DNA from: an uncultured delta proteobacterium
GTDB lineage: Bacteria; Myxococcota; Myxococcia; SLRQ01
NCBI GenBank assembly: GCA_963727485.1
Contig: CAVSGM010000002.1
Span: 1,792,001 to 1,856,000, forward strand
Length of the DNA stretch: 64,000 nucleotides
Direction: 5' to 3'
The position numbers were made by a program, and so were the translations under genes. Of the stretch, positions 2,599-44,943 are shown piece after piece. The number at the start of each line of letters is the position of its first letter. Position 1 is the first letter of the stretch. The notes beneath the pieces were generated by a model, which was given only the letters and a program-made list of their open reading frames with translations, made no database searches and had not been told where the DNA came from.

Positions 2599-5500
2599 AT
2601 GGCCGACCCCACCGCCCCGCGCCGGGAGGGCCCCGAGGCCCCAGACCCCGCGTCGACCCGCCCGGCCGACGACGGGCCCCGCTTCGCCCTCTCGTTCATC
2701 GAGGGGCGGGCGCTGGTGGGCTTCGAGGACCGGCCCATCTCCCCCTGGCTCACCGTGCGCCGGTACGCCATGGAGATCCCCGACGTCACCTTCCCCTTCG
2801 ACGTCACCGGGGGCGCCGAGCGCTTCCGCCACCGGCGCTGCCGCCTGGTGGCGCTGACCTTCGAGGCCGACGAGGCCGGGTGCGTCGCCGAGCTCCGCGG
2901 GCGCGTGGATCTCGCCGCCTTCGGCCTCGAGGAGGTCGCGGTGGCCTTCGCCGAGGGCTTCGTGGAGGTCGCCGGCACCGTCGCCGCCGGGCACCTCGAC
3001 GAGACCGGGGGCGACGCCGGCGCCATCGGCGAGCGGGTCCCCTTCACCCTGAAGATCGCCGTGGACGCCTCGGCCGATCGCGAGGTGCGCCTGCTGGTCC
3101 ACGACGTGCGCCTCTACGGCGAGAGCACCCTGGCCGCGCCGGCGGTGGCCACCGCGCTCCTCGCGGCGGTGGCGCACAGCGACCTGCCGGTGGAGACGGT
3201 GGCGCCGGCGGTGGTGCGCTTCGACCCGGTCCCCGGCTTCCTCCGGGGCCTGCTCCCCCGCCACGGGTGGAAGCTCCCGGACGCCCGGCACCTGCGCCTC
3301 ACCGGCGCCGAGATCCACCCCGGGCGCCTCGCCCTCACCTTCGACGCCGGCCAGGGGACCCACGCGCTGCCCGCCGGTGACGCCCTGCGCCCGTTCCTCT
3401 CGGCCCTCGAGGGGAGCCGGGCCTTCGAGGACGCCGAGCGGGCCATCGCCGAGGGGCGCCTCGACGACGCCCGGGCCGCCTACCTCGACCTCGAGGGGCC
3501 GCTCCTCGAGCACCCCTTCGCCGCCGAGCGCACCCTGGCGCTCCTGGCCGCCGAGCCCACCACCCGCGACGAGGCCCTCGACCTCGCCGCCGCCTGGCTG
3601 GAGCGCGAGCCCGGCTTCCCCCCGGCGCTCTGGGTCGCCGCCCAGGTCCGCCGGGCCACCGGGGCCGCCGGTGCCGCCAAGGCCCTGTTGAACCTCTCGG
3701 TCCACGCCCGGGAGCGCGGGGAGATCCTCGGCGCCCTCTTCGCCGCCGCCGCCGCCGGGGCCGCCGCCGAGGACGAGGGCGATCTCGGCCTCGCGGTCAC
3801 CGCCTGGGAGCGGGCGCTGGCCGTCCGGGCGATGCACCCCCCGGCCCTCGAGGCCCTCGCCCGCCTCTACCCGAAGGTCGCCGACCTCGCCGGCGCCGCG
3901 CGGGTCCTGGGCCACCTGCTCACCGTCACCCGGGGGCCCGAGCGCGCCCGGGCCCACCTGGCCCTCGGTCGCCTCCACGCCGAGGAGCTCGAGCCCCTGG
4001 GGGTCCCCGAGGGCGAGGTCGCCCGGGCCTGGCGCGCCCGCCGCGCCGCCGCCCCGTTCACCGGCGACCTCACCCGGGCCAAGCTCCACTTCGACGCCGC
4101 CCTGCGCCTCGACCCCGGGCTCACCGGCGCCTGGCTCTCCCTGGGCCGGGCCTGCGTGCGCCGGGCCGAGCCCCTGCGGGCGGTGCGCTGCCTCGACCGG
4201 GGGGCCGAGGGGCTGCTCGCCGAGGGGCGCCGCACCGAGGCCACCGCGGTGGCCATGGAGATCGGGCGGCTGTGGGAGGAGCAGCTCGGCCACGCCGAGA
4301 ACGCGCTGTTGCGCTACCGGGAGGTCCTCGACGCCGACCCCGAGGCCCTCGAGGCGCGCCTGCGCTACGCCCGCCTCGCCGAGACCCTGGACCACCTCCC
4401 GGAGGCCGAGGGGGCCTTCGAGGAGGCCCTGGTGCTCCTCGCCCCGCGCCTCGAGGCCGGGGGGGCGGACGCCGAGGACGAGGCCGCCCCGGGCCCGGAT
4501 CCCGCCGACGCCGGCGCCGCCCTCGACGCCCACCTGGCCCTGGCCCGCCTCTCCCAGGCCCGGCACCGGGACCCGGCGGCCGCCGCCGCCCACCTCGAGG
4601 CGGCCTACGCCCTCTGCGCCCCCGCCGGCCGCGCCGCCGCCGCCCCGGGCCTCCTCGCCCGGCTGGTGGCCCGCTACGAGGAGTCCGGGGACGCCCGGCG
4701 CCTGGCGGTGGCCTGCACCCGCGCCGCCGCCACCGCCCCGACCCCCGCCGAGGCCGCCGCCTGGCTCGCCCGGGCCGCCCGGGTCCTCGCCGAGGACGTC
4801 GGCGACGTCCCCGCCGCCCGGGCCCGCCTCGCCGAGGCCCGGGAGCGCGACCCCGAGGGCCTCGCGCCCCTGGAGGCGGCGCTCCGTGTCGCCGAGGCCC
4901 ACGGTCCCCCGGCCGCCGCCGCCGAGGCCCTCGAGGCCCTGGCCACCCGCCGGGACGACGCCGACGGCCGCGCCGGGGCCCTCCTCGCCCTCGGCCGCCT
5001 CCGGGCCGGGGCGCTCGACGCCCCCCGGGACGCCCTCGACGCCTTCGCCCGGGCCCGGGCCGAGGCCACGGATCCGGACCTCGCCGCCGCCGCCGCCGCC
5101 GAGGCGGTGGCCGTGGCCCGGCGCCTCGACGACCCCGAGGCCCTCGCCGAGGCCCTGGGGGTGCAGGCCACCGGGCTCACCGAGGCCCACGCCGCCGCCG
5201 CCGTCGCCGAGCTCCGCCTCGAGGAGGCCGCCCTCCGGGAGGGCGCCCTCGCCGATCCCACCGGGGCGCTCGTCGCCCTCGAGGCCGGCGCCGCTGTCGC
5301 CCCGGACGACGCCCGGCTCCACTGGCACCTCGGCCGCCTCCGCCTCGACGCCGGCGACGCCGACGCCGCCCACGCCGCCTTCGGCCGCCTCGTCGCCCTC
5401 GGGGGCCCCGGTGCCGCCGGGGTCGCCGAGGCCGAGGGCGCCCGCCGCCTGGGCGAGGCGGCCATGGGCGCCGGCGACCGCGCCGCCGCCGTGGACTTCC

Positions 5501-8500
5501 TCGCCGCCGCCTGGGACGCCGACCCCGGGGACGCCGCCCTCTACGAGCGGGTCGACGCCCTCCTCGGGGAGCTCGGCCGCCCGGGCGCCCGGGCCGATCT
5601 CGCCCGCCGGGCCGGGGAGGCCGCCCTCGAGGTCGGGGACGGCCCCGGCGCCGCCGCAAGGTTCCTCGCCGCCGCCCGCCTCGCCGGGGACACCCTCGGG
5701 GACCTCGACGCCGCCGTCGCCGACACCCAGGCCGCCCTCGACGCCGTCCTCCCCGAGGACACCGCCGGCCGCCGCCTCGAGGCCCGGGCCGCCACCGGGG
5801 GCGGGCCCCTGACCCCCGACGCCGGCGACGCGGTGGCCGCCGCCGCCGCGGGCCTCCTCCTCGATCTCGGGGAGGCCGCCTCCGACCCGGTGCTCCGGGC
5901 CGACGCCCGGGAGGCGCTCGCCGCCCTCGCCGGGGACGCCGCCCTCGCCGCCGGCCACCTCGCCCGCCGGGCCGACGATCTCGGCGAGGCCGGGGAGACC
6001 GAGGCCGAGGTCCGGGCCCTGGAGCAGGCCCTGGCCCTCGACCCGGCCCGGGACGACCTGCGCACCCGCCTCGCCGAGGATCTCGCCGGCGAGGACCCGG
6101 CCGCGGCGCTGGCCCACTACGAGGTGCTCCTCGCCCCCGACCGCCTCCACCCCGACGCCCTCGGCGCCTCGGATCGCCTCCTCCGGGCCGCCGACCTCGC
6201 CGAGGCCGCGGGGCGCCCCGAGCGCGCCCGCCACCACCTGGGCCTCTACCTCGCCCGGGAGCCCGCCGACGAGGGGGCCCTCACCCGCTACGCCGATCTC
6301 CTCCGGGACGCCGGGGCCAGCGGGCCCCTGCACGACGCCCTGGTCCACCACGCCGAGATCCTCGCCCACCGGGGGAGCCGCGCCGGCGACGAGGCCGAGG
6401 TCGACCGGGCCGTCGCCTGCCTCCTCGAGGCCGCGGCGCTGGCAGAGGGGCCGCTGGCCCGCCCCGACGCCGCCCGGGCGGCCCTGGAGCGGGTCCTGGC
6501 CCTCGCCCCGGACGAGGGCCGGGCCCTCGAGGGCATCCTCCCCTACCTCGACGCCGCCGACGACGCGCCGCTCCGGGCCGACGTCCTCGGGCGGCTGGCC
6601 GAGCAGGCCCCGGACCCGGCCGTCGCCGCCGCCCACCTGGTGGCCCGGGGGGCGGCCCTCCTCGGCCTCGAGGACCTCCACGGCGCCGACGGGGCCTACG
6701 CCGACGCCCTCGAGGCCGACCCCACCTCGGTGGCCGCCGCCGAGGGGCTGGCCACCGTCGCCTGGCTGCGCGGGGACCTCGGGCGCTTCGCCGAGGCCGC
6801 CGCCTGGCGCGCCGACCAGGCCACCTCCGACGGGGAGCCCGGCGCCCCGCGGCGCCACCTGGTGGTCGCCCGCCTCCGCCTCGACGCCCTCGGAGACACC
6901 GACGGGGGCCTCGCCGCCCTCGACGCCGCCCTCGCCGGGGAGGCCGCCCTCGGCGCCGTCGAGGCCGAGGAGGCCCATCGCCGGCGCCTGGCCTGCCACC
7001 TCATGGCCGGGGACGCCGCCGGGGCCGAGGCCGACCTCGGCGCCCTCATCGCCGGCCGCCGCCGGGGCGACCCGAAGGGCCGGGCGGCGCTGCTCCGCCA
7101 CCGGGCCGAGCTCCGGGAGGACCAGCTCGCCGATCCCGAGGGGGCCCGGGAGGACTGGGCCGAGGCCCACGCCCTCGACCCCGAGGACCCGGTGGCCCTG
7201 GGCCGGCTGCTGGCCATCGCCGCCGCCGCCGACGAGCCGGTGGCCCTCGCCTTCCTCCAGGCCGACGACGCCGCCCGCCGGCGCCGGGCCGGGGACCTCG
7301 ACGGCGCCGCCCGGGCGCTCGCCGCCCGGGCCGCCCTCCTCGGCGACCGCCTCGGCAATCCCGCCGCCGCCGTCGACGCCGCCCGGGACGCGGTGGCCAC
7401 CGCCGCCGCCCCGGCCCTCCTCGCCGAGCTCCGGGGCGAGCTCCGGACCCGGCTCCGCGCCCTCGGCGACCTCGACGGCGCCTTCGAGACCGCCCTCGCC
7501 GAGGCCGCCGCCCTCGATCCCGCGGCCGCCGCCGCCCACCTCGCCGCCCGGGCCCGGGAGGCCGACGCCGACGGCCGCCCCGATCTGGCCCTCGCCGCCA
7601 GCCGCGCCGCCTTCGCCGCCGCGGTCGAGGACCCGGTCCTCGCCGCCGACCTCGCCTGGCGCCTGGTCCGGGCCGGGAGCGTCGACGAGGCACGGGCCCC
7701 GTCCGCCCGCGCCGCCGCCGCCACCCCCGAGGCCGTCGCCGCCGCCGCCGACCTCGGCCTCGACGAGGCGGTGGGCCGCCTCGCCCTGGTGGCCTTCGCC
7801 CTCGAGGACGCCGCCGCCGCCGCGGCTCTCCTCGATCGCCTCCTCGCCGCCGCCCCCGTCCGGGCGGGCCTCGCCGACCTCGCCGCGGACCGGGCCGCGG
7901 CCCGGGGCGACCTCGACGCCGCCCGGGGGATCCTCGCCGCCCACTTCGAGGCCGCTCCGGGGCCCGGTGCGCCGCCGGGCGGTGGCCCGGCACCTCGCCG
8001 ACCTCGCCGCCGCCGCCGGCGACGCCGCCGCCGAGGCCCTGTGGCTCGCCGAGGCCGGCGCCGAGGCCCCCGAGGACCTCGCCCGGCGCCTCGACGCCCA
8101 CGCCGCAGCCGGGGACGTCTCCGGCGTGCTCGAGCTCGCCCGCCGGCGCCTCGACGCGGGGCCCGCGGCCGGGGACCGCGCCGGCCACCGCGCCGAGCTC
8201 GGGGCGCTGGCCGGGCGCCTCGCCGACGACCTCGGCAATCCCGCCGCCGCCCTGGCCCTCCTCGACGAGCACCCGGACCTGGTGGCCGACGACCCGCGCC
8301 TCCTCGTCCGCCGCCTCGACGCCGCCCGGGCCGCGGACCGCCCCGAGGCCCAGGCCGCCGCCCTGGTGCGCCTCGCCGAGCTCGCCGGGGACGCCGGCGA
8401 CGACGCCGCGGCCGCCGCCTGGCTGGTCGAGCTCGGGCACCTGCGCCGCGCCCGCCTCGACGACCCGGCGGGCGCCGAGGCGGCGCTCACCGAGGCGCTC

Positions 8501-11500
8501 CACCGGGGCCTCGCCGACCGGGCCATCGCCGACGAGGCCCTGGCCCTCGCCGACGCCCGGGGGGACGCCGCCGCCGCCGCGGATCTCCACGAGCTCGCCG
8601 CCGAGCGCGCCCAAGACCCCGCCGGGGCCGCCGCCCACCTCGCCGCCCTCGGGCGCCTCTACGCCGGCCCCCTCAAGAGCCCCGAGGCCGCCGAGGCCGC
8701 CTGGCGCGCCGCCCTCGCCCAGGTCCCCGGCCAGCCCGAGGCCACCGAGGGGCTCCGGGCCCTCCTCGCCGCCGCCGGCCGGCGGTCCGACCTCGCCGCC
8801 CTCGCCCGGGACCTGGCGCTCGCCGCCGAGGGCCAGGCCCGGGCCCTCGCCCACCTCGACGCCGCCGACCACGCCCTCGCCGGCGGCGACGCCGAGGCCG
8901 CGGTCGCAGACCTCCTCGCCGCCCGGGCCACCGACGCCGAGGCCTTCGCCGAGGCCGCCGGCGAGGCCCGCCTCGACGCCGCCCGGGCCGCCGCCGGCCA
9001 GCACCGCGCCCGGGCCGAGGCCCGCCTCGACGCCGCGGTGGCCACCGCCGACCCCGAGCCCCTCTACCTCGAGGCCGGCGACCTCCTCCGGGACGAGGTC
9101 GGCGACGCCCACCTCGCCGAGCGCGCCTACCGGGCGGCGTTCCAGGTGGCCCGATCGGTGCGCGCCGCCGAGCGCCTCGCCGCCCTCCTCGAGGATCGGG
9201 GCGACGCCCGGGGCCTCGCCGAGCTCGACGAGGCCCGGGCCGACCACGCCCCCGACGGCCCCGCCCGGGCCGCCCGCTACCTCGCCGCCGGGGACCGCTA
9301 CCGCGACCAGGTCGGCGACCTCGACGCCGCGGTCCAGGCCTACGACGCCGCCTACGACGCCGACCCCACCGGCGCCGACACCGCGGCCCGCCTCGAGGCG
9401 GCCCTCCGGGCGGCCGGGCGCGTCGCCGAGCTCGCCGAGCTCCTGCGCCACCTCGCCGAGGGCCAGGCCGGGGCCGCGCGGGCCGCCCGCCTCCTCGAGG
9501 CCGCCGAGCTCGAGGCGGAGGCCGGGAACGCCGAGGCGGCGCTGGCCTGCCGCCTCGACGCCGAGGCCGCCGACCCCGACGACACCGAGCTCCTCCGGGG
9601 CGCCGCCGACGCCCTCTGGGCCGCCGACCGCCGGGCCGAGGCCGCCGAGCGCTACCGGCGCCTCCTCGCCCGGGAGCCCGGGGCCAGCCGGGCCTTCGAC
9701 CGGCTCACCGAGGTCCTCGAGGCCGAGGACGACCACGCCGCCCTCGCCGAGGTGGTCGCCGCCCGGGCCGAGGCCGCCGAGGGGCGCCTGGCCCTCGACC
9801 TGTGGCTGAAGGCCGAGACCCTCTTCGCCCGCCTCGAGGACGGGCCCCGGGCCGCCGAGGCCGCCGCCCGGGCCTTCGCCCTCGAGCCCGGGGACCCGGA
9901 GGCCTTCGCCGCCGCCCTCCGCCACGCCGAGGCCGCCGCCGACCACCGGGCGGTGGCCGAGGTCCTCGACGCCCACCTCGAGGTGCTCCCCGCCGAGGAC
10001 GGCGCCCGGCCGGGCCTGCTCCGGCGTCTCGCCGAGGCCCGCCAGGCGGCCGGCGACGTCGCCGGCGCCCGGGGGGCCCTCGACGCCCTGCTCCAGCACG
10101 TCCCCGAGGACGCGGGGATCGTCGCCCTCGCCGCCGCCCTCGCCGCCAGCGCCGGGGAGGCCGAGGCCCTCCCCTACGACACCCGCCTGGTGGCCCTCGC
10201 CGAGGAGGGGGCCGAGGTGGACCCCGAGGCCCTCCAGGCGTCCCGCCGGCGCCTGGGCACCGCCGCCGCCGCCGCCGGGGACGCCGGGGAGGCGGTGCGC
10301 CAGCTCGGTGCCGCCCTCGCCGCCACCACCGGCGACGATCGGGTGGCCGTCGCCACCGCGTTGGCGCTGGCCGCCCGCCGTGCCGGCCTCGCCGAGGCGG
10401 AGGCCGACGCCGAGGCGATCCTCGCCGACGCCGCCATCGATGATCCCGATCGCCGCAGCCACCTGGTGGCCGCCGCCCGGGCCCGGGAGGCCGCGGGCCA
10501 GCCCGACCGGGCCCTCGCCCACTGGGAGGCGGCCTTCGACCTCGACCCCGCCGCCGAGGACGCGGTGGAGGTCCTCCTCGGCGCCGCCCGGGCGAGGGGC
10601 GACGGGGCCACCGAGGTCGCCCTCCTCCGGCGCCACGCCGCCGGCCTCGACGACCCGGCGCGGGCCCTGCGCGCGTACCTGGCCCTGGTCGCCGCCGCCG
10701 AGGCCGCCTCGGACCCCGCCACCGCCGAGGCCGCCGGGGTCACGGCCTTCGACCTCGCCCCCGACGATCCCCGCGCCGCCGCCGCCGCCCTCCCGGGCCT
10801 CCGGGCCCGGGGCCCCGCCGCCGGCGCCGACCTCGCCCGGGCCCTGGAGCGGGTGGCCCGGGACGCCGAGGGCGAGGCCCGGGTCGCCTGCCTCCTCGAG
10901 GCCGGGGAGGCGCTGGCCGCTGCCGGGGCCGAGGACCGCGCCCGGGCGGTGAGCCACCTGGGCCTCGACGCCGCCCGGGACCTCGAGCCCTGGGACGGGC
11001 CCACCCGGGACCGGATCCGCGCCGCCTGCACCCGCCTCCTCGAGGGGGCCGACGATCCGGTGGAGCGCGGCGAGCTCACCTCCCTCATGGCCCGGGCCGG
11101 CGAGGGCGAGGGCCGCCTCTCAGCCTGGCTCGCCGCCGCCGAGGCCTTCGCCGAGGGCGGGGAGTCCGGCCGGGCCGCCGCCGCCCTCGCCGCCGCCAGC
11201 GAGGCCGCCCCCCAGGACCCCCGGCCCCCCCGGGCCGCGGTGGCCCTCCACCTCGCCGCCGGGGACCTCCCCGCCGCCGCCGCCGCCGCCCGGACCCTCG
11301 CCGAGGGGAGCGCCGACCACCTCCCCGACGAGGTCCTCGCCGTCGCCGACGCCGCCAGTGGCGCGCCCCAGGTGGCCCGGGGGCTCCTGGCGCTGGCCTG
11401 CGCCCGGCTCCCCGGGCGCGGCGACCTGCTGCTGCGCCTCGCCGACGCCTGCGCGGCCACCGGAGACCCCGCCGCGGGCCTCGAGGCCCTCGAGACGGCG

Positions 11501-14500
11501 CTGGCCACCGGCGCCCTCGATCCCGTCTCCAGCCTCGAGGCCACGGTGCGCGTGGCGCGGATCCACGCCGCCGCCGGGGAGGCGCCCGCCGCCGCCGAGG
11601 CCTGGGCCCGGGTTCTCGACGCCGACCCGGACCACGCCGAGGCCCTCGGCGCCCTCGAGGCCCACCACGCCGAGCGCAAGGACTGGTCCGCCCTCGCCGC
11701 CCTCCACCGGAGCCGGGCCCAGGCGCTGGCCGCCGCCGGGGATCCCGAGGGCGCCGCCGCCGCCGAGCTCGCCCGGTCCGCCGCCCTCGAGTCCGTCGGC
11801 GACCTCGAGGCCGCCCGGGCCGCGGTGGTCGCCGCCCTCGACCGGCGCCCGGGGTGGGACGCCGCCCTCGACCGCCTCGCCGACCTCGCCCGGGCCGCCG
11901 GCGACGCCGCCGCCGAGGCCAAGGCCCTCCAGGCCCGCCTCGAGGCCGCCGAGGACACCCGGGCCCGGTCCGCCGCCGCCTGCGCCCTCGGCCGCCTCCA
12001 TCGCCGCGGCGGCGACGACCTCACCGCCGCCGCCGCCTACCGCGTGGCCCTGGTCGCCGCCGGCGAGGGTGAGGGCGAGGGGGCACCCACCTGGGCCCGG
12101 GACGCCGTCCGGGAGGGCGCCGCGGTCCTCGCCGGGGTCACCCTCTCCGCCGGGGATCCCGCAGGCGCCCTGACGCTGGTCGATCGCGCCCGCGCCGCCG
12201 GCGCCGAGGGCCCCGACCTCCTCAAGATCGAGGCCCGGGCCGCCGCCCTGGCCGGGGACGCCGCCCGGGCCCGGGACCGGTTCCAGGAGATCCTCGCCGA
12301 GCGCCCCGACGATCCGGTGGCCCTCGAGGGCCTCGCCGCCGCCGCCGCCGCCCTTGGGGACGCCGAGGGCGAGCTCGAGGCGCGCAGCCGCCGGGCCGAG
12401 GCCGCCGGCGACGCCGGGGACCAGGTGGAGTGGCACCTCGCCGGGGCCGCCCGCGCCCGGGAGCTGGACCGCGCCGAGGAGGCCGCCGCCGCCGAGGACG
12501 CCGCCTTCGACGCCGACCCCACCGACCCCCGGGCCTTCGAGGCGGTGCGCCGGCGCCTGGACGAGACCGGCGACGCCCGGGGCCTCCACGACCTCTGGCG
12601 CCGCCGCGCCCGCGCCCTCGAGGACGACCGGGCCCGGGCCGAGGCCTTCTACGAGCAGGGCGAGGTGGCCCGCCTCCGCCTCGACGAGCCCCACATGGCC
12701 GCGGAGGCCTACGAGCGGACCCTGGCGTTGGCCCCGGATCACCCGGCGGCCCTGGCCGCTCTCGCCGAGACCTTCCATGTCCTCGGGCGCCCGGATCGCG
12801 CCGAGCCCCTCTACCGACGCCTCCCCGACGGCGGCCCCGGGCTCCCGGCGTTCGTGGTCCACCACCGCCTCGGGGAGCTCGAGGCCGGCCGGGGCCGGGA
12901 CCGGGAGGCGCTGGCGGCCTTCCGGGAGGCCGCCGCCCGGAACCCCGGCTTCCTCCCGGCGTGGCAGTCGGCCCGCACCGTGGCGCGGCGCCTCGGGGAC
13001 GCCGACGCCGAGACCGCGGCCCTCGAGGGCCTCCTCGAGGCCCTCCCCGACGACGCGGGGGAGGACCGCCTGGCGGCCATCAAGAGCCTCGGCGACCTCG
13101 CCCGCGGGCGCCTCAAGACCGAGGTGGCCCTGCGCCACTACCAGGCCGCCGCCGAGCTCGACCCGGCCGACCGGGAGGTCCACGAGGCCCTCGCCGACCT
13201 CTACGGGGGCCAGGGCCGGTGGCGGGAGGCCCAGGCGGCCCTGGAGCGCCTCGCCGACGCCACCACCGAGCCCGACGCCGAGGCCGAGGTCTGGGTCCGC
13301 CTCGCCCGGCTCCACGCCAACCGCCTCGCCGACGCCGACGGGGCCCTGCCCTGCCTCGCCCGCGCCCTGGAGGCCGACCCGGACCACGTGGACGCCTGGC
13401 GCCTGCGCCTGGAGCTCGAGGCGCCCCGGGGCGACGCCGCGGCCATCGCCGACTGCGCCCGGCGCCTCGCCGAGCTCGGCCACGAGGGCGACCTCGAGCC
13501 CTTCCGCCTCGAGGTGGGCCGGGCCCTGCTCGCCACCGGGGACCCGGCCACCGCCGCCCCCTGGCTCCTCGACGCCGCCCGGGCCCGCCCCGCCGACGCG
13601 GCCCTCGCCGCCGAGGCCGCCGCCGCCCTCACCGTCTCCGGCCACCCCGAGGACGCCGCGGCCCTCCTCGCCGAACGCGCCGAGCAGTCCGGCAGCCCCG
13701 CCGACCTCCGGGAGGCCGCCGAGGCGGCCCTGGCCGCGGGGGACGCCCGGGGCTACGTGGACAAGATGTGGGCGGGCCTCGCCGACGCCGGCCTCGAGCC
13801 CAGGCTCCAGGCGCTGGCCGCCCGGGGCCTCGCCGAGGTCATGGGCCAGCGCCTCGGGGACCCGGCCGCCGCCGCCGAGGCCCTGCGCCCCTTCGCCGTC
13901 GCCCACCCCGAGGATCGCGGGCTCCTCGGCCAGCTCGCGGCCCTCCTCGAGGACGCCGGGGACCCCGCCGGGGCCCTCACCCTGTGGCTGGACATGGCCC
14001 GCCGTGCCCCCGACGACCTCCGGGCCCTGGGCCGGGCCGCGGAGCTCCTCGAGCCGCAAAGCCCCCTGCGCGCCGGGCTCCTCCGGGGCCTCACGGCCTT
14101 CGTCGAGGGCGCCGGGCCCCGGGACACCGCCGCCGACCTCTCGGGCCTCCGGGTCTCGGAGATTGGGCGGATGGAGCTCGCCGACCCGGCGGTGGCCGGC
14201 CCCCTGGGCTGGTTCCTCCGGGCGATGACCCCCTACCTCGAGCCCCTCTTCCCCGCGGACCTCCTCCGGGCCGGCGCCGACGAGAGCGCCTACCTCGACC
14301 CGGCCCTCTCCGAGCCCGCGGCCCGCCTCACCGACTTCGCCCGGGTGGTCACCGACCGGCCCCTGCGCCTCTACCGCTCCGAGCGCCTGGGCTTCGAGCT
14401 GCAGGTGGAGAACACCCGGCCGGTGAGCGTCATCGTCGGCGCCGAGGTCCTGGACGCGTCCCCGGGCCTCCGGGACCAGGTGCTGCTCCGGGCCGCCGAG

Positions 14501-37013: not shown

Positions 37014-37878
37014 TCAGGGTCCGTCGGCGCCGGCGAGGTAGTCGGGGTAGCGCAGCTCGACGCCGAAGACCGCCTTGGCCTTGGCGTTCGTCACCCGCTT
37101 GGAGCCCAGGAGCGTCGGCGACGGGGCCTCGCTGGCCGGGGCCACCTCCGGCGCCGGGAGCCCGAGGCGCCCGGCGAGGAAGGTCGCCACCTCCCGGAGG
37201 GACGCGGGCCGGTCGTCGGCGAGGTTGTAGATCCCCGAGGCGTCGGGGTCGGCGGCGAGGGCGCGGGCGAGGGTGGCGACGATGTCGTCGACGTGGATCC
37301 GGTTGAGGAGGTTCTCGCCCCCGCCAAAGAGACGCACCCGGCCGGCGCGCAGGCGCCCCTCGAGCCCCCGGCCCCGGCCGTAGATCGCCGCCAGCCGCAG
37401 GACGATGCCGGTGGCCCCGAGGCTGCGCGCCCCCTCGAGGAACACGGTCTCCGCGTCGAGGCGGGCGGCGGCGCGATCGGGCCCGGGGTCCACGGGGCTC
37501 TCCTCGGTGACCTCGCCGCCGTCGCGCTCGGCGTAGACCCCGGTGGTGGACAGGTAGATGAGCGCCCGGGGCGCGGCGGCCGGCGACGACGTCGAGGACC
37601 GCCCGGGCCCCGGCGTCCCGGCGCGGGTCCGGGCCCACCGGGGGCACGGTGTGCACCACCACCGCCCCCTCGGGGCAGATATCGCCGAGGCCCTCCGTCT
37701 CGGGAAGTGCACACACCGCGACCTCGACGCCCCGACCGGCGAGCTCCTCGGCCCGGGCGGGATCGCGGAGGGTGCCAGAGACGGCGATCCCGTGGCCCCG
37801 GAGGGTGCGCGCCAGGTGGGCGCCCACGTGGCCGAGACCGACGACGACGACGGGCGGGGGCGCGGTGGCATCGGGCAT
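37014..37878 (-). CDS. NAD-dependent epimerase/atypical SDR (YeeZ-like), frameshift near 37600
   Basis: VVVGLGHVG Rossmann motif; YLSTTGVY, LRLAAIYG, NRIHVDDI, YNLADD. Confidence 0.85.
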
Positions 37879-38468: not shown

Positions 38469-38909
38469 TTGACCGACGACCCCTCCGTACCCGAGAGCCC
38501 CCCCGCCGAGCCCACCTCGGGCCGGCGACGATTTCTCCGGGAGGGCGCGGGGATGCTGGCCCTCGGGGCCCTCGCCGTGGCGCCCGGCGGCCGCGACCGC
38601 GCCCTCGACGCCCTCCGGGGCCGGGTTCGCACCGTGCGCCTGGGCAGCGCCCGGCCCCACCCGGCGCCCGGTGTCAGCGCCCGGCGCGCCGGTGACGAGC
38701 TGGTGGTCTCCATCCCCGGCGCCGATCCCGGCGTCGCCCTCAACGAGACCGCCGCCCAGGTGTTCCTCGCCTGCGACGGCCGGCGCACCGTCGACGCCAT
38801 CGCCGCCTCGCTCTGTCGGCGCTACCGCGTGTCGCCGGCGCGGGCCCGCCGCGACGCGGGGGCGGTGGTCTCGGCGCTGACGCGCGCCGGGTGCCTCGTC
38901 CTCGGCTGA
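38469..38909 (+). CDS. PqqD-family RiPP recognition element (RRE) protein with a twin-arginine-like N-terminus
   Basis: LNETAAQVFLACDGRRTVDAIAASLCRRY..ARRDAGAVVSALTRAGCL is the PqqD pattern; N-terminal GRRRFLR followed by a hydrophobic stretch. Confidence 0.85.
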   Translation: MTDDPSVPESPPAEPTSGRRRFLREGAGMLALGALAVAPGGRDRALDALRGRVRTVRLGSARPHPAPGVSARRAGDELVVSIPGADPGVALNETAAQVFLACDGRRTVDAIAASLCRRYRVSPARARRDAGAVVSALTRAGCLVLG

Positions 38910-38936: not shown

Positions 38937-39147
38937 TCAGGGCCGGCTGGGGGCGCAGGGTCCCGACGGGCGAGCAGATCTGGGGGTGGCAGGCGTAGGG
39001 TCCGCAGCTCGAGGACGGCGCCGCCCGGGGGATGGGGATTTTGATCGACCGGATCCGAGGGCGGACGTACTTCTTGACCCCGTCGACGATCGCCTCCTCG
39101 GCGGCCTCCAGGGCCTCGTCCTCGATGTCGTTGCGGTCGTCGCTCAT
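38937..39147 (-). CDS. Candidate RiPP precursor peptide (~69 aa after one-base correction), CxP-repeat core
   Basis: MSDDRNDIEDEALEAAEEAIVDGVKKYVRPRIRSIKIPIPRAAPSSSCGPYACHPQICSPVG; dropping one G near 38963 gives PCAPSRP-TGA; starts 6 nt after the peptidase stop. Confidence 0.7.
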
Positions 39148-39153
39148 GGTCCG

Positions 39154-40863
39154 CTACCAGGCGGTGGACCAGGTCAGGCGCCAGCCCGCCGGGAACCGCT
39201 CGAGCCAGTACTCTACCACCTGCGTGGTCTCCCGGTCGCCCTGGTCGGCGGTGCGCAGGGCGTGGACCAGGACCTCGGGGTAGTTGCGGGTGCCGGTGGT
39301 GTAGACCGAGAGGATCCGGGTGTGGACGGTGGCGTCGGTGTCGGTCCGGCCGGTGGCGATCCGGGCCCGGGCGGCGTCGTCGAGGGCGTCGCAGTAGAAG
39401 CCGTCCATGGTCGCCCGGTAGGCCTCCGGGTCCCGGGCGTTCACCGCGGCGTCGGCGTCGTGGATCACCCGGGCGATGGCCGCGCGGTCGGCGTCGGGGA
39501 CCGGGGTGGGCGGCTGGGAGAGGTAGGGGGCCAGGGCGTCCTTCCAGGCGGCGCGGAAGGCGTCGAGGCCCTCCCCGACCACGTGCTGGAGCAGGTGGTC
39601 CATCGCCCGGGCCAGGGAGGGGCCGTCGCTGACCTGGTCGCCGAGGGTGTCGACCAGGGTCCACCCGTGCCAGGTCACCGCGGCGGCGCGCCACAGCTCC
39701 AGGAGCTTCGCCCGGCCGTAGCGGGAGACGAAGAGGCTCACGAACGAGCCGTCCCGACCGTAGTTGCGGCCATAGACGTCGCTGTCCTCGAAACCGTAGC
39801 GGTAGGTCGCGTTCTCCTCGCCGGCGACCAGGTCGTCGGCGTAGGCCTGGTGGCGGTCCCGGCCCGAGCCGTCGAGGTAGACCGCGAGCCCCTCGTCGAG
39901 AAACGGCAGGTGGTCGGTCTTCCCGTCGACGGCGGTGGCGAGGACGTGGGTGAGCTCGTGGCCGAAGTGGTGGCGCTCGTAGCTGTCGTCGCCTTGGAGG
40001 TAGAGGACGTCGACCTCGTGCTTCCAGGGGAAGGCCTGGCCCACGCTGTAGCCGTGGGCGAAGGCGGCCATGCGGTTGGGCGAGAGGACCACGGTGATCC
40101 GCGGGCGGGTGGTCAGGCCCAGGAACTCGCTGATGCGGTCGTAGGCCCGCTGGCGATCCTGGAAGATGGGGTCGAGGTCGGCGGCGGCGGCGGTGCCCGG
40201 GAGGTAGCGCAGGTCGAAGGGGCCGCGCTCGGTGTCCTGGTAGGCGACGCCCGCGTAGGTGGGGACGTCGGCGCAGAGGACCGGCGCGATCGGGCCGCCC
40301 GCGTCGCCGCCGGCGCCGGGGCCGTTGTCGTTGCCCGCGGTGCCGGGGCCGTTGTCGCTGCCCGCGGCCCCCTGGCCGTTGCCGTTGCCGTTGCCGAGGC
40401 CGCTGTCCGGGCCGGCGCCGGTGCCGCCGGTGTCGCCGTTGCCTCCGGCGGTGCCGTTGCCTCCGGCGGTGCCGTTGCCTCCGGCGGTGCCGCCCGCGCT
40501 GCCGCTGGCGCTCCCGCCCTGGTTGGCGCTTCCGTCGTCCTCGCTGCCGGTGCGCGGCCCGGCGCCCGGGACGCCGTCGAGGCCTCGAAGGTGCAGGCCC
40601 CCCGGGAGGCCCGGACGGACGGCGCGCCCAGGCCGGGTCCGCCAGCCGGGGAGGGCGCCGGGGCGGGTGGCCAGGGACGCCACCGGGACGCGCAGCGCGC
40701 TCGGCGTCGCCACCGGGCGGGTCGCCGCCGCCGGGGCGCCGCCGGCCGTCGCCGGGCTGGCGGCGGTCGTGGTCGGGGGCGCATCGGTGGGCGGCGCCGC
40801 CGGGGCGGTGCAGGCGGCGGCGAGGAGGACGAAGGCGAGGGACGGGGGGGCGAGTCGGCGCAT
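39154..40863 (-). CDS. Lipoprotein with a gluzincin (peptidase MA-like) zinc metalloprotease domain
   Basis: Lipobox LAAAC; Gly/Asn-rich linker; HELTH followed by FLDEGLAVY (HExxH + ExxA). Confidence 0.8.
   Translation of the reverse strand: MRRLAPPSLAFVLLAAACTAPAAPPTDAPPTTTAASPATAGGAPAAATRPVATPSALRVPVASLATRPGALPGWRTRPGRAVRPGLPGGLHLRGLDGVPGAGPRTGSEDDGSANQGGSASGSAGGTAGGNGTAGGNGTAGGNGDTGGTGAGPDSGLGNGNGNGQGAAGSDNGPGTAGNDNGPGAGGDAGGPIAPVLCADVPTYAGVAYQDTERGPFDLRYLPGTAAAADLDPIFQDRQRAYDRISEFLGLTTRPRITVVLSPNRMAAFAHGYSVGQAFPWKHEVDVLYLQGDDSYERHHFGHELTHVLATAVDGKTDHLPFLDEGLAVYLDGSGRDRHQAYADDLVAGEENATYRYGFEDSDVYGRNYGRDGSFVSLFVSRYGRAKLLELWRAAAVTWHGWTLVDTLGDQVSDGPSLARAMDHLLQHVVGEGLDAFRAAWKDALAPYLSQPPTPVPDADRAAIARVIHDADAAVNARDPEAYRATMDGFYCDALDDAARARIATGRTDTDATVHTRILSVYTTGTRNYPEVLVHALRTADQGDRETTQVVEYWLERFPAGWRLTWSTAW
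40435..40488. repeat. 18-bp tandem repeat x3 encoding TAGGNG in the peptidase linker
   Basis: gccgttgcctccggcggt repeated. Confidence 0.85.
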
Positions 40864-41039: not shown

Positions 41040-43302
41040 ATGGCCCGGGCTTCCCTTCCCATCCTCGGCACGGGGGCGGTGGCACCAGCGGCGCCCCGGC
41101 CCCTGCGGTTCGCCTGGCTGGAGCTGACCCACCGCTGCAACCTCCAGTGCGACCAGTGCTACACCAACAGCACTCCCCGCACGCCCCTGGGGAGCCTGCC
41201 CACCGAGCGCTGGCACCGCCTCCTCGAGGAGATCGTCGCCGCCGGGGGGAAGACGGTGCAGTTCACCGGCGGTGAGGCCACCACCCACCCGGACCTGGTC
41301 CCGCTCCTCGAGCACGCCGCCGGGCTCGGCCTCGCCGTCGAGCTGTTCACCAACGCCACCCGCCTCGACGACGCCCTGATTCGAGCGCCTCGCCACCCTC
41401 GGGGTGGCGGTGGCCACCTCGCTGCACAGCCACGAGGCGGCGGCCCACGACGCCATCACCCGGACCCCCGGGAGCCACGCCCTCACCGTCGACGCCATCC
41501 GCAGGCTGGTCGCCCGGGGGATCGAGGTCCGGGTCGCCGGGGTGCTCATGGCCGGCAACGCCGACCACGGCCCGGCCACCGAGGCCCTCATCCGGCGCCT
41601 CGGCGTCCTCACCCCGTTCAAGACCGACCCGGTGCGCCCCACCGGCCGGGGGCGCAAGGCCGAGTCCCCGGCCGAGGTGGCCAGCTGCACCGTGTGCGAC
41701 GACGGGACCTTCCAGGCGATGCACACCGATCCCGCGGGCCCGGCGCCGTCGACCTGCTGGGACGGGCGCATCGCCGTGAGCCCCCGGGGCGAGGTCTACC
41801 CCTGCATCTTCAGCCGCGGGGCGAAGGTGGGCAGCGTCGCCGACACCCCGCTCCCCCAGGTCCTCGCCCGCGGGCCCCTCGCCGGGCTCTGGGCCCTGAC
41901 CACCGACGACGTCCCCGAGTGCCGGGACTGCGACCGGAAGGGCGTGTGCTTCGACTGCCGGGCCCTGCCCCTCACCGCCCTCGGCGACGTCACCGCCAAG
42001 AACCCCCGGTGCGACTACGTGCCCCCGGCCAGGCGCCCCAGGCGCCCGCGCCCCGAGGCGGCGAGGGTGCGCCCGGGTCTCCTGGGCCGGGACCTGGCCG
42101 GCGAGCGGCTCCTGGTCGACGCCGCCACCGCCCGGCTCCACCGCCTCGACGCCGGGGCCGCGGCGATCCTCGACGCCCTGGCCGCCGGCGCGTCGGAGGC
42201 CGCCCTCGCCGCGGGCCTCACCCGGCGCTTCGGCCTCGCCCCGGACGAGGCGGCCTCGGAGATCGCCACCGTCGCCGACGGCCTCTGGGACGCGGGGCTC
42301 CTGGTGGACCCCGCGGGCCGGGACGTCACCGGGGACCGGGTCCTCGCCGGCGTCGCCCCGCCACCGGTGCCCGACGCCCTGGGCCTGGCCGCCGGCGCCG
42401 CGGACCCGGCGGCCGGGCGCGCCGTCGCGGACACCCCCGCCGCCGAGGTCCCCCGGCGCGCTCTCCTCGGCCTCCTCGGGCGCACCGTGGCCCTCGCCGC
42501 CGACGCCGCCGCCTGGGCCGAGCTCGAGGCCCTGCTGGCCCCCCTGGCCGCCGACCCCGGGGCCACCCCCGAGGCCACCATCTCGGTGGTCTCCCGCCGC
42601 TCCGCCCCCCACCTCGGGGCGCTCCACCACGTCCTGGTCGACGGCCGGCAGGTCCGGGCGGTGCGGACCCCCGGCGCCCTGCGCTCGGCGGTCGAGGAGG
42701 TGCTGTGCACCCTCGCCGCCGAGGGCCAGGGCGACCTGCGCCTCCACGCGGCGGTCCTGGTGGGCCCCGCCGGGGCGGTGCTCATCCCCGGGGCCTCTGG
42801 GGCGGGCAAGAGCCTGCTCGCCCTCGCCGGGGTCGCCGCGGGCCTCGGCTACGGCACCGACGAGGCGGCGCGGATCCCGCTGGTCGGCGAGGTGGTGGTC
42901 GACGCGCTCCCCAAGCCGGTGACCGTGAAGGCCGCGGGCCGGCCCTGGGTCCCCCCGGCGCTGACGGCCCGGTGGATCCCCCCGGACGTCGCCGACCCCG
43001 ACGACTACGCCTGGGTGCCGCTGGTCGGCAGCGCCCCGGCGCCGGTGGTGGCGGTGGTCCTCCCGGATTGCTCCGGCGCCACCGAGGGCCTCGCCCCCTG
43101 CGAGGCCGGCGACGCCGCCGAGGCCCTCCTCGCCGGGGTCTTCAACCTCGGCGGGGCGGGGGTCGCCGCGGGCCTCGAGGCGGTGTGCCGCCTGGTCGAG
43201 GGCGCGGCCTGCCTCCGCCTCGACACCCGGGACCTCCCGGCCGCCGGGGCGCGCCTCGCCGAGCGCCTCGGCCAAGGCGCGGCCCGGGGCACCGGCACCT
43301 GA
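41040..43302 (+). CDS. Radical SAM/SPASM peptide maturase fused to a PqqD/RRE domain and an HPr-kinase-like P-loop domain; frameshift at ~41380
   Basis: [86 protein letters not shown]; kinase LHAAVL..GASGAGKS..GTDE; removing one T at 41380 restores IERLATLGVAVATS. Confidence 0.88.
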
Positions 43303-43315
43303 GCTTCGCCGGGCG

Positions 43316-44943
<1,628 letters not shown>

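Follow-up and report, generated by a model that had tools for sequence, protein, structure and literature searches.

The locus analyzed here raises the question of whether a single polypeptide chain can unite two unrelated peptide-modifying active sites with one domain that presents the peptide to both of them. The window, a stretch of 64,000 nucleotides, was taken from contig CAVSGM010000002.1 (assembly GCA_963727485.1, positions 1,792,001 to 1,856,000, forward strand) of an uncultured delta proteobacterium assigned to the Myxococcota (lineage SLRQ01). It contains a gene whose product joins a radical S-adenosylmethionine (rSAM) domain, a SPASM domain, a PqqD-like RRE (the recognition element for peptides that are synthesized ribosomally and modified after translation, RiPPs) and an HprK-like kinase domain (Table 1). 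This triple fusion is real, and it is rare and lineage-restricted; a small peptide encoded nearby is its likely substrate.

In the assembly, the gene is interrupted by a frame break near position 41380. A previous examination of the letters alone (the sequence-only reading) had obtained one chain of about 750 residues by correcting this single break, and the correction was borne out. Homologue matches (tblastn) and codon-position bias both switched frame at ~41372-41396, and short-read contigs from three studies (X1, X2 and X4) each aligned with one gap, being one base shorter than the window span that each covers. Under the bridging rule of 31 letters on each side, two of the three contigs passed, X1 having 24 letters on one side, at a depth of 2-3. 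With one base fewer in the contigs of three separate studies, this break is an error of the assembly.

The fusion was also found in a single frame elsewhere. Intact one-frame versions were observed in P0004 (736 residues, 53% identity), P0008 (757 residues) and genome G003 (744 residues, 48% identity), while the one-frame version of G002 (53% identity) ends at a contig edge just past the kinase DE motif. In total, the fusion is maintained at 40-55% identity across five sequences. P0003 was rejected as independent support, being 96-99% identical and frameshifted elsewhere. The open reading frame (ORF) from 41404 to 43302, within which the SPASM-RRE-kinase junctions had been located, contains no internal stop codon.

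All motifs named in the sequence-only reading were found at their assigned positions. The N-terminal part (41040-41381) matched Pfam Radical_SAM with 50.6 bits (cut-off 29.5), and the long ORF matched SPASM with 23.2 bits (cut-off 21.5) and PqqD (PF05402) with 25.1 bits (cut-off 23.4). The protein carries the CxxxCxxC motif, both profiles above cut-off and at least seven SPASM cysteines, as expected of the radical SAM/SPASM superfamily, and its RRE combines PF05402 above cut-off with the order of three strands followed by three helices (residues 341-424 of the P0004 model). All NCBIfam maturase models remained under cut-off for the fused enzyme. The extra CTVC pair that had been pointed out is present, but it is not common to the family. 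Both cysteines of this CxxC occur in four of the five fusions and one in P0008, whereas 5 of the 19 scorable rSAM-RRE relatives (28 aligned) have no extra cysteine before the SPASM domain. The pair was consequently rejected as a family hallmark, part of the clade being without it. Auxiliary-cluster cysteines in the fusions comprise seven conserved residues plus one or two extra, in a SPASM region that the P0004 model renders with low confidence.

The P0004 model was built from a 4-sequence alignment and reached a mean pLDDT (predicted local distance difference test) of 66, the RRE (341-424) and kinase (454-728) being confident. Its C-terminal part aligned with PEPCK at Z 14.4 over 273 residues (root-mean-square deviation, rmsd, 5.0). 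For the window kinase domain modeled on its own, pLDDT was 89.5, and Foldseek returned PEPCK first and then HprK structures; the best PDB sequence-profile matches were to HprK (E 3e-5). TIGR04352 (HprK_rel_A) matched the kinase part with E 1e-10 and 40.9 bits and P0004 with 51.3 bits, both below the cut-off of 200. The models of HPr kinase proper (TIGR00679/PF07475) were not listed in profile scans of the window protein and scored at most 27 against 33.3 in relatives. The catalytic histidine, GK[ST] and the acidic pair were intact in all 21 aligned kinases. Histidine, Walker A motif, acidic pair and fold of an HprK/PEPCK-type kinase were all found in the domain, and the proposal of a C-terminal HprK-like P-loop domain was thereby upheld.

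The distribution of the fusion was determined in several surveys. Of the 150 top-scoring representatives, out of 1.84 billion, three reached the kinase, two of these being the window protein and its near-copy; 27 were of the rSAM-SPASM-RRE type, 7 had a scored N-terminal RRE, and 113 matched in the rSAM part only. Three of five genomes of the window's order carry the fusion. In a survey of 401 genomes of the phylum, with 3-4 candidates per genome scored, the rSAM clade was found in eight. A metagenome scan with a broader alignment gave 137 confirmed matches, of which the best 80, several of them duplicates, were analyzed; none was a triple fusion. A narrower first metagenome scan had returned 191 pattern matches and no relatives, and a scan of genome contigs returned 2 loci. 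The clade with these 137 confirmed matches fits no curated family.

The sequence-only reading had considered the architecture unusual, and the survey and the literature agree with it. An rSAM-RRE-HprK fusion was not described in the literature searched, although the list of 1,158 architectures in PMC12710340, accessible in part, may contain one; two surveys of RREs never use the word kinase in their main text, though their full architecture tables may differ. Two-domain forms are common, namely rSAM-ScmC clusters and, in large Atlas clusters, PqqD-bearing look-alikes of the RRE-kinase half of about 400 residues. The statement that HprK-type kinases usually occur separately or fused to an RRE needs qualifying in that rSAM-kinase fusions, like RRE-kinase fusions, are common elsewhere.

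In the trees, which were quick and FastTree builds with unresolved deep branches, the four intact fusions grouped as a single clade with support values of 98 and 97. We infer a single origin from the gene order combined with the tree, in which an rSAM-SPASM-RRE gene would have fused in place with a downstream kinase gene and the N-terminal RRE would have been lost. A linear series from fully split to fused forms was rejected, as the fully split type constitutes a separate branch.

The probable substrate, overlooked in the sequence-only reading, is encoded about 2 kb from the fused gene. Its pattern is unique among 56,597 frames of the genome, and the surplus base at position 38965 in the assembly is missing from runs X1 and X3. 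Counterparts occur in the same setting in G002 and G003, and an adjacent precursor was found in all eight phylum genomes with the rSAM clade; Y..P is invariant in these precursors, and CxP units account for 37 of their 40 core cysteines. Proline stands at +2 of the core cysteine in 37 of 40 cases and at -3 in 20 of 40; being the only conserved neighbor of cysteine, it is a candidate acceptor or recognition element. An ORF rich in CxP was present in 61 of 80 metagenome loci, compared with 1 of 23 rSAM-free control loci, and a CxP-repeat tail on the enzyme itself in 18 of 150 relatives, compared with 0 of 101 controls. The tailed enzymes (P0183, P0219, P0225, P0238, P0246, P0249, P0253 and others) could be self-modifying fusions of enzyme and precursor. 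At L082-L084, L086, L087 and L090, CxP precursors of about 200 residues combine an RR leader with a folded domain at the C terminus, which presumably resembles a peptidoglycan-binding domain. Neither a CxP-repeat RiPP nor a twin-arginine RRE was described in the searched literature, which was mostly open-access, and the CxP-repeat family is apparently unstudied.

The role of the protein as a RiPP maturase was supported. Cross-linking and phosphorylation coupled on one chain, as suggested by the sequence-only reading, would fit the following scheme, to which we give an even chance of being right in full. The central RRE would grip the YxxP leader of the neighboring CxP-repeat precursor. The rSAM half would install thioether cross-links on the cysteines, with proline or a neighboring residue as acceptor, and the kinase half would phosphorylate a serine that lies closely ahead of the first cysteine, at Y+18 to Y+20. 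The leader would be removed by the lipoprotein peptidase, and export may proceed by twin-arginine translocation (Tat) via the separate signal-bearing RRE. Several lines of evidence are consistent with individual steps. YxxP is a characterized RRE-binding motif (PMC12710340; PMC13381572, both accessible in part). In linear polyphosphorylated peptides (LPP), the residue that an HprK-like kinase phosphorylates is Ser3, at a distance of 18 residues from the leader tyrosine, according to the accessible text of PMC13381572; the window precursor has serines at Y+18 to Y+20, and all eight phylum precursors have serine 1-3 residues before the first cysteine. CrpC, a SPASM enzyme with seven auxiliary cysteines, forms ranthionines on a Cys-repeat substrate (accessible text of PMC13692751), and the best match for the rSAM half of the P0004 model was SkfB, a maturase of sactipeptides, with Z 15.9 over 182 residues and an rmsd of 3.1.

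Other observations weigh against this scheme. The lead of SkfB over other radical-SAM folds is only about 1.5 Z, in a model whose SPASM part is of low confidence, and the extra CxxC of four of the five fusions might occupy the iron site that thioether-forming enzymes keep open. Sharing of the central RRE is not a necessity either, given that the separate one could act for one of the two catalytic domains. No kinase-linked metagenome precursor examined (L073-L081, L088) has serine before the first cysteine; those of L076 and L080/L081 are free of serine although their kinases are intact, and those of L073, L074, L077, L078 and L088 have a C-terminal serine or threonine. In addition, metagenome loci are often short or duplicated, and the counts overstate independence. 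A universal rule of serine before the first cysteine was rejected on the metagenome precursors. Since it fails outside the eight phylum precursors, either the subgroups have different acceptors or the kinase has another function.

Concerning the radical step, a different chemistry is unlikely but the most probable of the alternatives. The CxP cysteine could be oxidized as by anaerobic sulfatase maturases (anSME) acting on CxPxR, to a thioaldehyde and then to formylglycine or a thio-oxazole, or carbon-carbon links could be formed. The sulfatase motif CXPXR begins with CxP as its first half (accessible text of PMC13638132), in the window, G002, G109 and G114 the final repeat is CxPxR or CxPxK, anSME was among the Foldseek matches, and the eight or nine cysteines of the fusions permit fully ligated auxiliary clusters. 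However, arginine is missing from most repeats, the +4 position being mixed and holding Arg or Lys in some final repeats only; the extra cysteines are missing in part of the clade, and SkfB outranks anSME structurally. Thioether formation is the preferred, still provisional, assignment.

The central position of the RRE was examined by comparing gene orders. The RRE of SkfB is N-terminal. RREs of characterized rSAM maturases are usually N-terminal or separate, as the sequence-only reading held; in this clade a C-terminal RRE is common (27 of 150). In G109, G238, G247, G269 and L088, the rSAM, RRE and kinase are three genes in the same order. The kinase gene lies directly downstream in G114 and in all 11 metagenome rSAM-RRE loci; in G114 the rSAM-RRE stop and the kinase start overlap, and at several other loci the start codon follows within a few bases. 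The gene order thus indicates that the RRE became central when rSAM, RRE and kinase were fused in place, and no special design appears to be needed. Where a C-terminal RRE is present the kinase was found too (12 of 12 loci), whereas it was found at 0 of 68 loci without an RRE match (in the flanks fetched, some short). As the kinase occurs only at loci having a C-terminal RRE, the second RRE may have arrived together with it. When 8000 candidates were searched with the RRE-kinase half, a weakly matching PqqD-HprK protein was the sole match besides the window protein and its near-copy, a result compatible with the RRE having come either with the rSAM or with the kinase.

The N-terminal parts of the enzymes differed as well. 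The first radical-SAM cysteine is residue 27-37 in all four fusions measured, compared with residue 70 at least in 25 of 28 rSAM-RRE relatives, and the N-terminal extension of these relatives matched the RRE with an hhalign probability of 96% (E 2e-9). The fusions are without this RRE-like extension. Because it is missing, the central RRE would be the sole leader-binding domain within the chain, and it is plausible that one RRE is shared between the rSAM and kinase halves. The idea of a shared RRE thus gained support, though short of proof.

It is quite unlikely, by comparison, that the central RRE acts for the kinase alone, with the rSAM half using the separate RRE or none, and that the fusion is a translational-coupling accident of no mechanistic consequence. 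The association of the C-terminal RRE with the kinase, the RRE-kinase look-alikes in Atlas clusters and the few bases between stop and start codons at unfused loci fit such an account. Against it stand the lack of an N-terminal RRE-like domain in the fusions, the persistence of the fusion at 40-55% identity, and the separate RRE itself, which has an export-type signal and also accompanies two-RRE enzymes (L075-L081).

For the kinase half, it is very unlikely that the domain is not a peptide serine kinase at all, being instead an ATP-dependent helper or acting on threonine, tyrosine, an existing phosphate or a small molecule. The serine-free precursors of L076 and L080, a full-length fold nearer to PEPCK than to HprK, and a weak FomB kinase match in two relatives would be explained in this way; yet the characterized RRE-linked HprK-like enzymes are peptide serine kinases (accessible text of PMC8498205 and PMC13381572), and the three serines of the window precursor lie at an LPP-like distance. 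That the frameshifts are genuine, or the fusion an assembly product, is hardly credible and already largely refuted: other frameshifts do occur in the assembly (3 of 24 tested matches, some antisense duplicates) and the listed short-read pieces leave 42368-42817 uncovered, but the surplus bases are missing from short-read contigs and four independent one-frame fusions exist.

Among the neighboring genes, a predicted lipoprotein zinc peptidase lies on the strand of the precursor, 7 bp upstream of it, with an orthologue in G002; none was found at the G003 locus. It is a candidate leader peptidase. Within this gene (40330-40520, minus strand), a Gly/Asn/Thr-rich repeat linker has 18 gap positions in one X3 contig, suggesting length variation. 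A stand-alone RRE with a twin-arginine-type signal, convergent with the precursor, was also present in G002 and G003. Its L080 counterpart, rather than the window copy, was the protein scored against TAT_signal (E 5e-4, below cut-off).

The location of the signal differed between loci. At five unfused phylum loci, the precursor leaders carry RRxxL/K and a hydrophobic stretch (mean hydropathy 1.3-1.9). At three fused loci the precursors are without such a leader (-0.04 to 0.4), that of G003 having arginine pairs but no hydrophobic stretch, and each of these loci has a separate twin-arginine-type RRE. A second clade with a separate signal-bearing RRE comprises L075, L076, L079 and L080/L081, the L075 copy being clipped at the contig start. 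At the RR-leader loci L073, L074, L077, L078 and L088, no signal-bearing RRE gene was found, some flanks being short. Altogether, the signal was on the precursor at 10 loci and on a separate RRE at 8 (two clades), and never on both in the DNA fetched; these loci are mutually related, their flanks are in part short, and support for the two clades being separate is only 81-83. No ABC exporter was present in the window's cluster, in which the ORFs from the PilZ gene to the aldehyde dehydrogenase gene were all accounted for. The cluster has no exporter, and in the window and G002 a lipoprotein zinc peptidase gene lies upstream of that for the precursor; these observations suggest that the signal-bearing RRE may carry the peptide piggy-back through Tat. 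In its widest form, the proposal would be that of an undescribed RiPP class, in which every CxP is stapled (possibly by Cys-Pro thioethers), the shared RRE orders both modifications, and the Tat-signal RRE delivers the folded peptide to a periplasmic lipoprotein peptidase; in this entirety it is a speculative proposal that we hold with low confidence.

Further observations were made in the window and related genomes. No precursor was seen close to an unlinked twin-arginine RRE paralogue of G003 (L022:1492-1950, minus strand). A single RRE gene in the vicinity of genes for electron-transfer flavoprotein occurs both in G003 (L023) and in the window's own genome (G000:C3:627754-628101). Outside the window, G000:C2 at ~1,515,000-1,565,000 contains about a dozen radical-SAM matches, including some two-rSAM frames; a second rSAM after the G003 fusion (L011 7085-8626) has its best match in this cluster. 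Frameshifts at ~37575-37630 (epimerase-like gene) and ~43770-43785 (aldehyde dehydrogenase gene) are most likely further assembly errors. Positions 4001-14000 of the window form 10 kb of 81-84% GC with a steady negative GC skew, compared with ~74% GC elsewhere.

If both activities are as proposed, the enzyme gene and the precursor gene would suffice to reconstitute both modifications, providing a compact entry into the CxP-repeat family. The fusion would also allow a direct test of whether one RRE can supply two active sites of unrelated kinds, and of the order in which these act. Should proline be the acceptor, the cross-link would be of a type that is not known among thioether RiPPs, and should the signal-bearing RRE export the peptide, a transport role for RREs would be indicated. 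The architecture alone matters less, since two-domain versions of both halves are common.

Table 1. Positions of the fused maturase gene, its domains and motifs, and the associated genes within the window.
Feature	Position	Strand	Basis or remarks
Fused maturase gene, rSAM-SPASM-RRE-HprK-like kinase, ~750 residues	41040..43302	+	One surplus base near 41380 in assembly
Radical SAM CxxxCxxC motif	41136..41159	+	Pfam and motif read-out; GGE at 41268
Frame-change interval, assembly error	41372..41396	+	tblastn frames, codon bias, three contigs one base shorter
Extra CxxC (CTVC) before SPASM domain	41686..41697	+	Lineage-specific; possible eighth cluster ligand
SPASM domain, seven conserved Cys	41755..42018	+	Pfam, Cys alignment
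PqqD-like RRE in central position, three helices following three strands	42064..42309	+	Pfam; P0004 model
HprK/PEPCK-fold kinase-like domain	42457..43302	+	Profile, model, alignment
Kinase motifs LHAAVL, His and Walker A GASGAGKS	42742 (LHAAVL); ~42745 (His); 42790-42813 (Walker A)	+	Sequence read-out
Kinase acidic motif TDE, including DE	42856-42864 (TDE); 42859-42864 (DE)	+	Sequence read-out
Precursor peptide, 69 residues (likely substrate)	38937..39147	-	Four CxP units; leader with YxxPxI; three Ser immediately ahead of first Cys
Predicted lipoprotein zinc peptidase	39154..40863	-	LAAAC lipobox, HELTH, EGLA; Peptidase_MA_2 E 9e-5, below cut-off
Stand-alone RRE, N-terminal twin-arginine-type signal	38469..38909	+	PqqD E 2e-12; convergent with precursor

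When compared with known systems, one similar set of components, judged by its model names, is that of SynChlorMet (TIGR04249, TIGR04248, TIGR04250-1), which likewise combines rSAM/SPASM proteins, a PqqD-like RRE and an HprK-like protein; the name itself was not mentioned in the searched literature. Fusions of rSAM with ScmC form ESM Atlas clusters of 50-89 members, for which Pfam ScmC (PF27840) is listed and PqqD is not; PF27840 did not come up in any of the local Pfam scans. However, all Scm models scored far below cut-off here (ScmE/F ~59 against 400 for P0004), ScmC was not listed for the window kinase, one rSAM is present instead of two, and the CxP-repeat precursor has no C-terminal serine. 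The best kinase-domain profile was HprK-related kinase A (TIGR04352), and PqqD_rel_X (TIGR04353) matched the RRE weakly, but the window kinase reaches 41 bits against a cut-off of 200 and is fused to an rSAM.

LPP clusters share with the fusion cluster the YxxP leader, the RRE, the HprK-like kinase and serine at Y+18, as far as the accessible text of PMC13381572 describes them. That text contains no radical SAM enzyme and reports an NTP transferase, an exporter resembling MsbA and an enzyme of the signal-peptidase-I type. The window's cluster has none of these, and an NTP_transf_5 gene lies on another contig (C3). At L043, L044, L046, L047 and L050, Cys-free peptides with RR and YxxP were observed beside HprK-like kinases, four of them sharing GSPP; with no rSAM match in the 1.5-kb flanks, these look like kinase-only LPP-like systems within the phylum.

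The phosphorylated lasso peptides paeninodin and pseudomycoidin likewise have a [Y/W]xxP leader, an RRE and an HprK-like kinase (accessible text of PMC8498205). Lasso kinases act on a C-terminal serine according to the same text, whereas none of the eight phylum-genome precursors ends in serine, and neither a lasso cyclase nor a B2 peptidase was found in the window's cluster. The split relatives G109 and G238 do carry NTP_transf_5 (L033:8974-9858 and L034:5072-6154), as phosphoglycosylated lasso clusters do.

On the rSAM side, a Cys-rich precursor adjoins an rSAM/SPASM gene, as in sactipeptide and ranthipeptide clusters. SkfB (PDB 6efn) and CrpC are likewise rSAM/SPASM enzymes with seven auxiliary cysteines that address a Cys-repeat substrate via an RRE (accessible text of PMC13692751). 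CrpC differs in having an N-terminal RRE, and the repeats of CrpA are CxxQ/D rather than CxP (same text). Neither SkfB nor CrpC has a kinase. Taken together, these likenesses suggest that the fused enzyme works like a sactipeptide or ranthipeptide maturase joined to a kinase of the LPP or paeninodin type.

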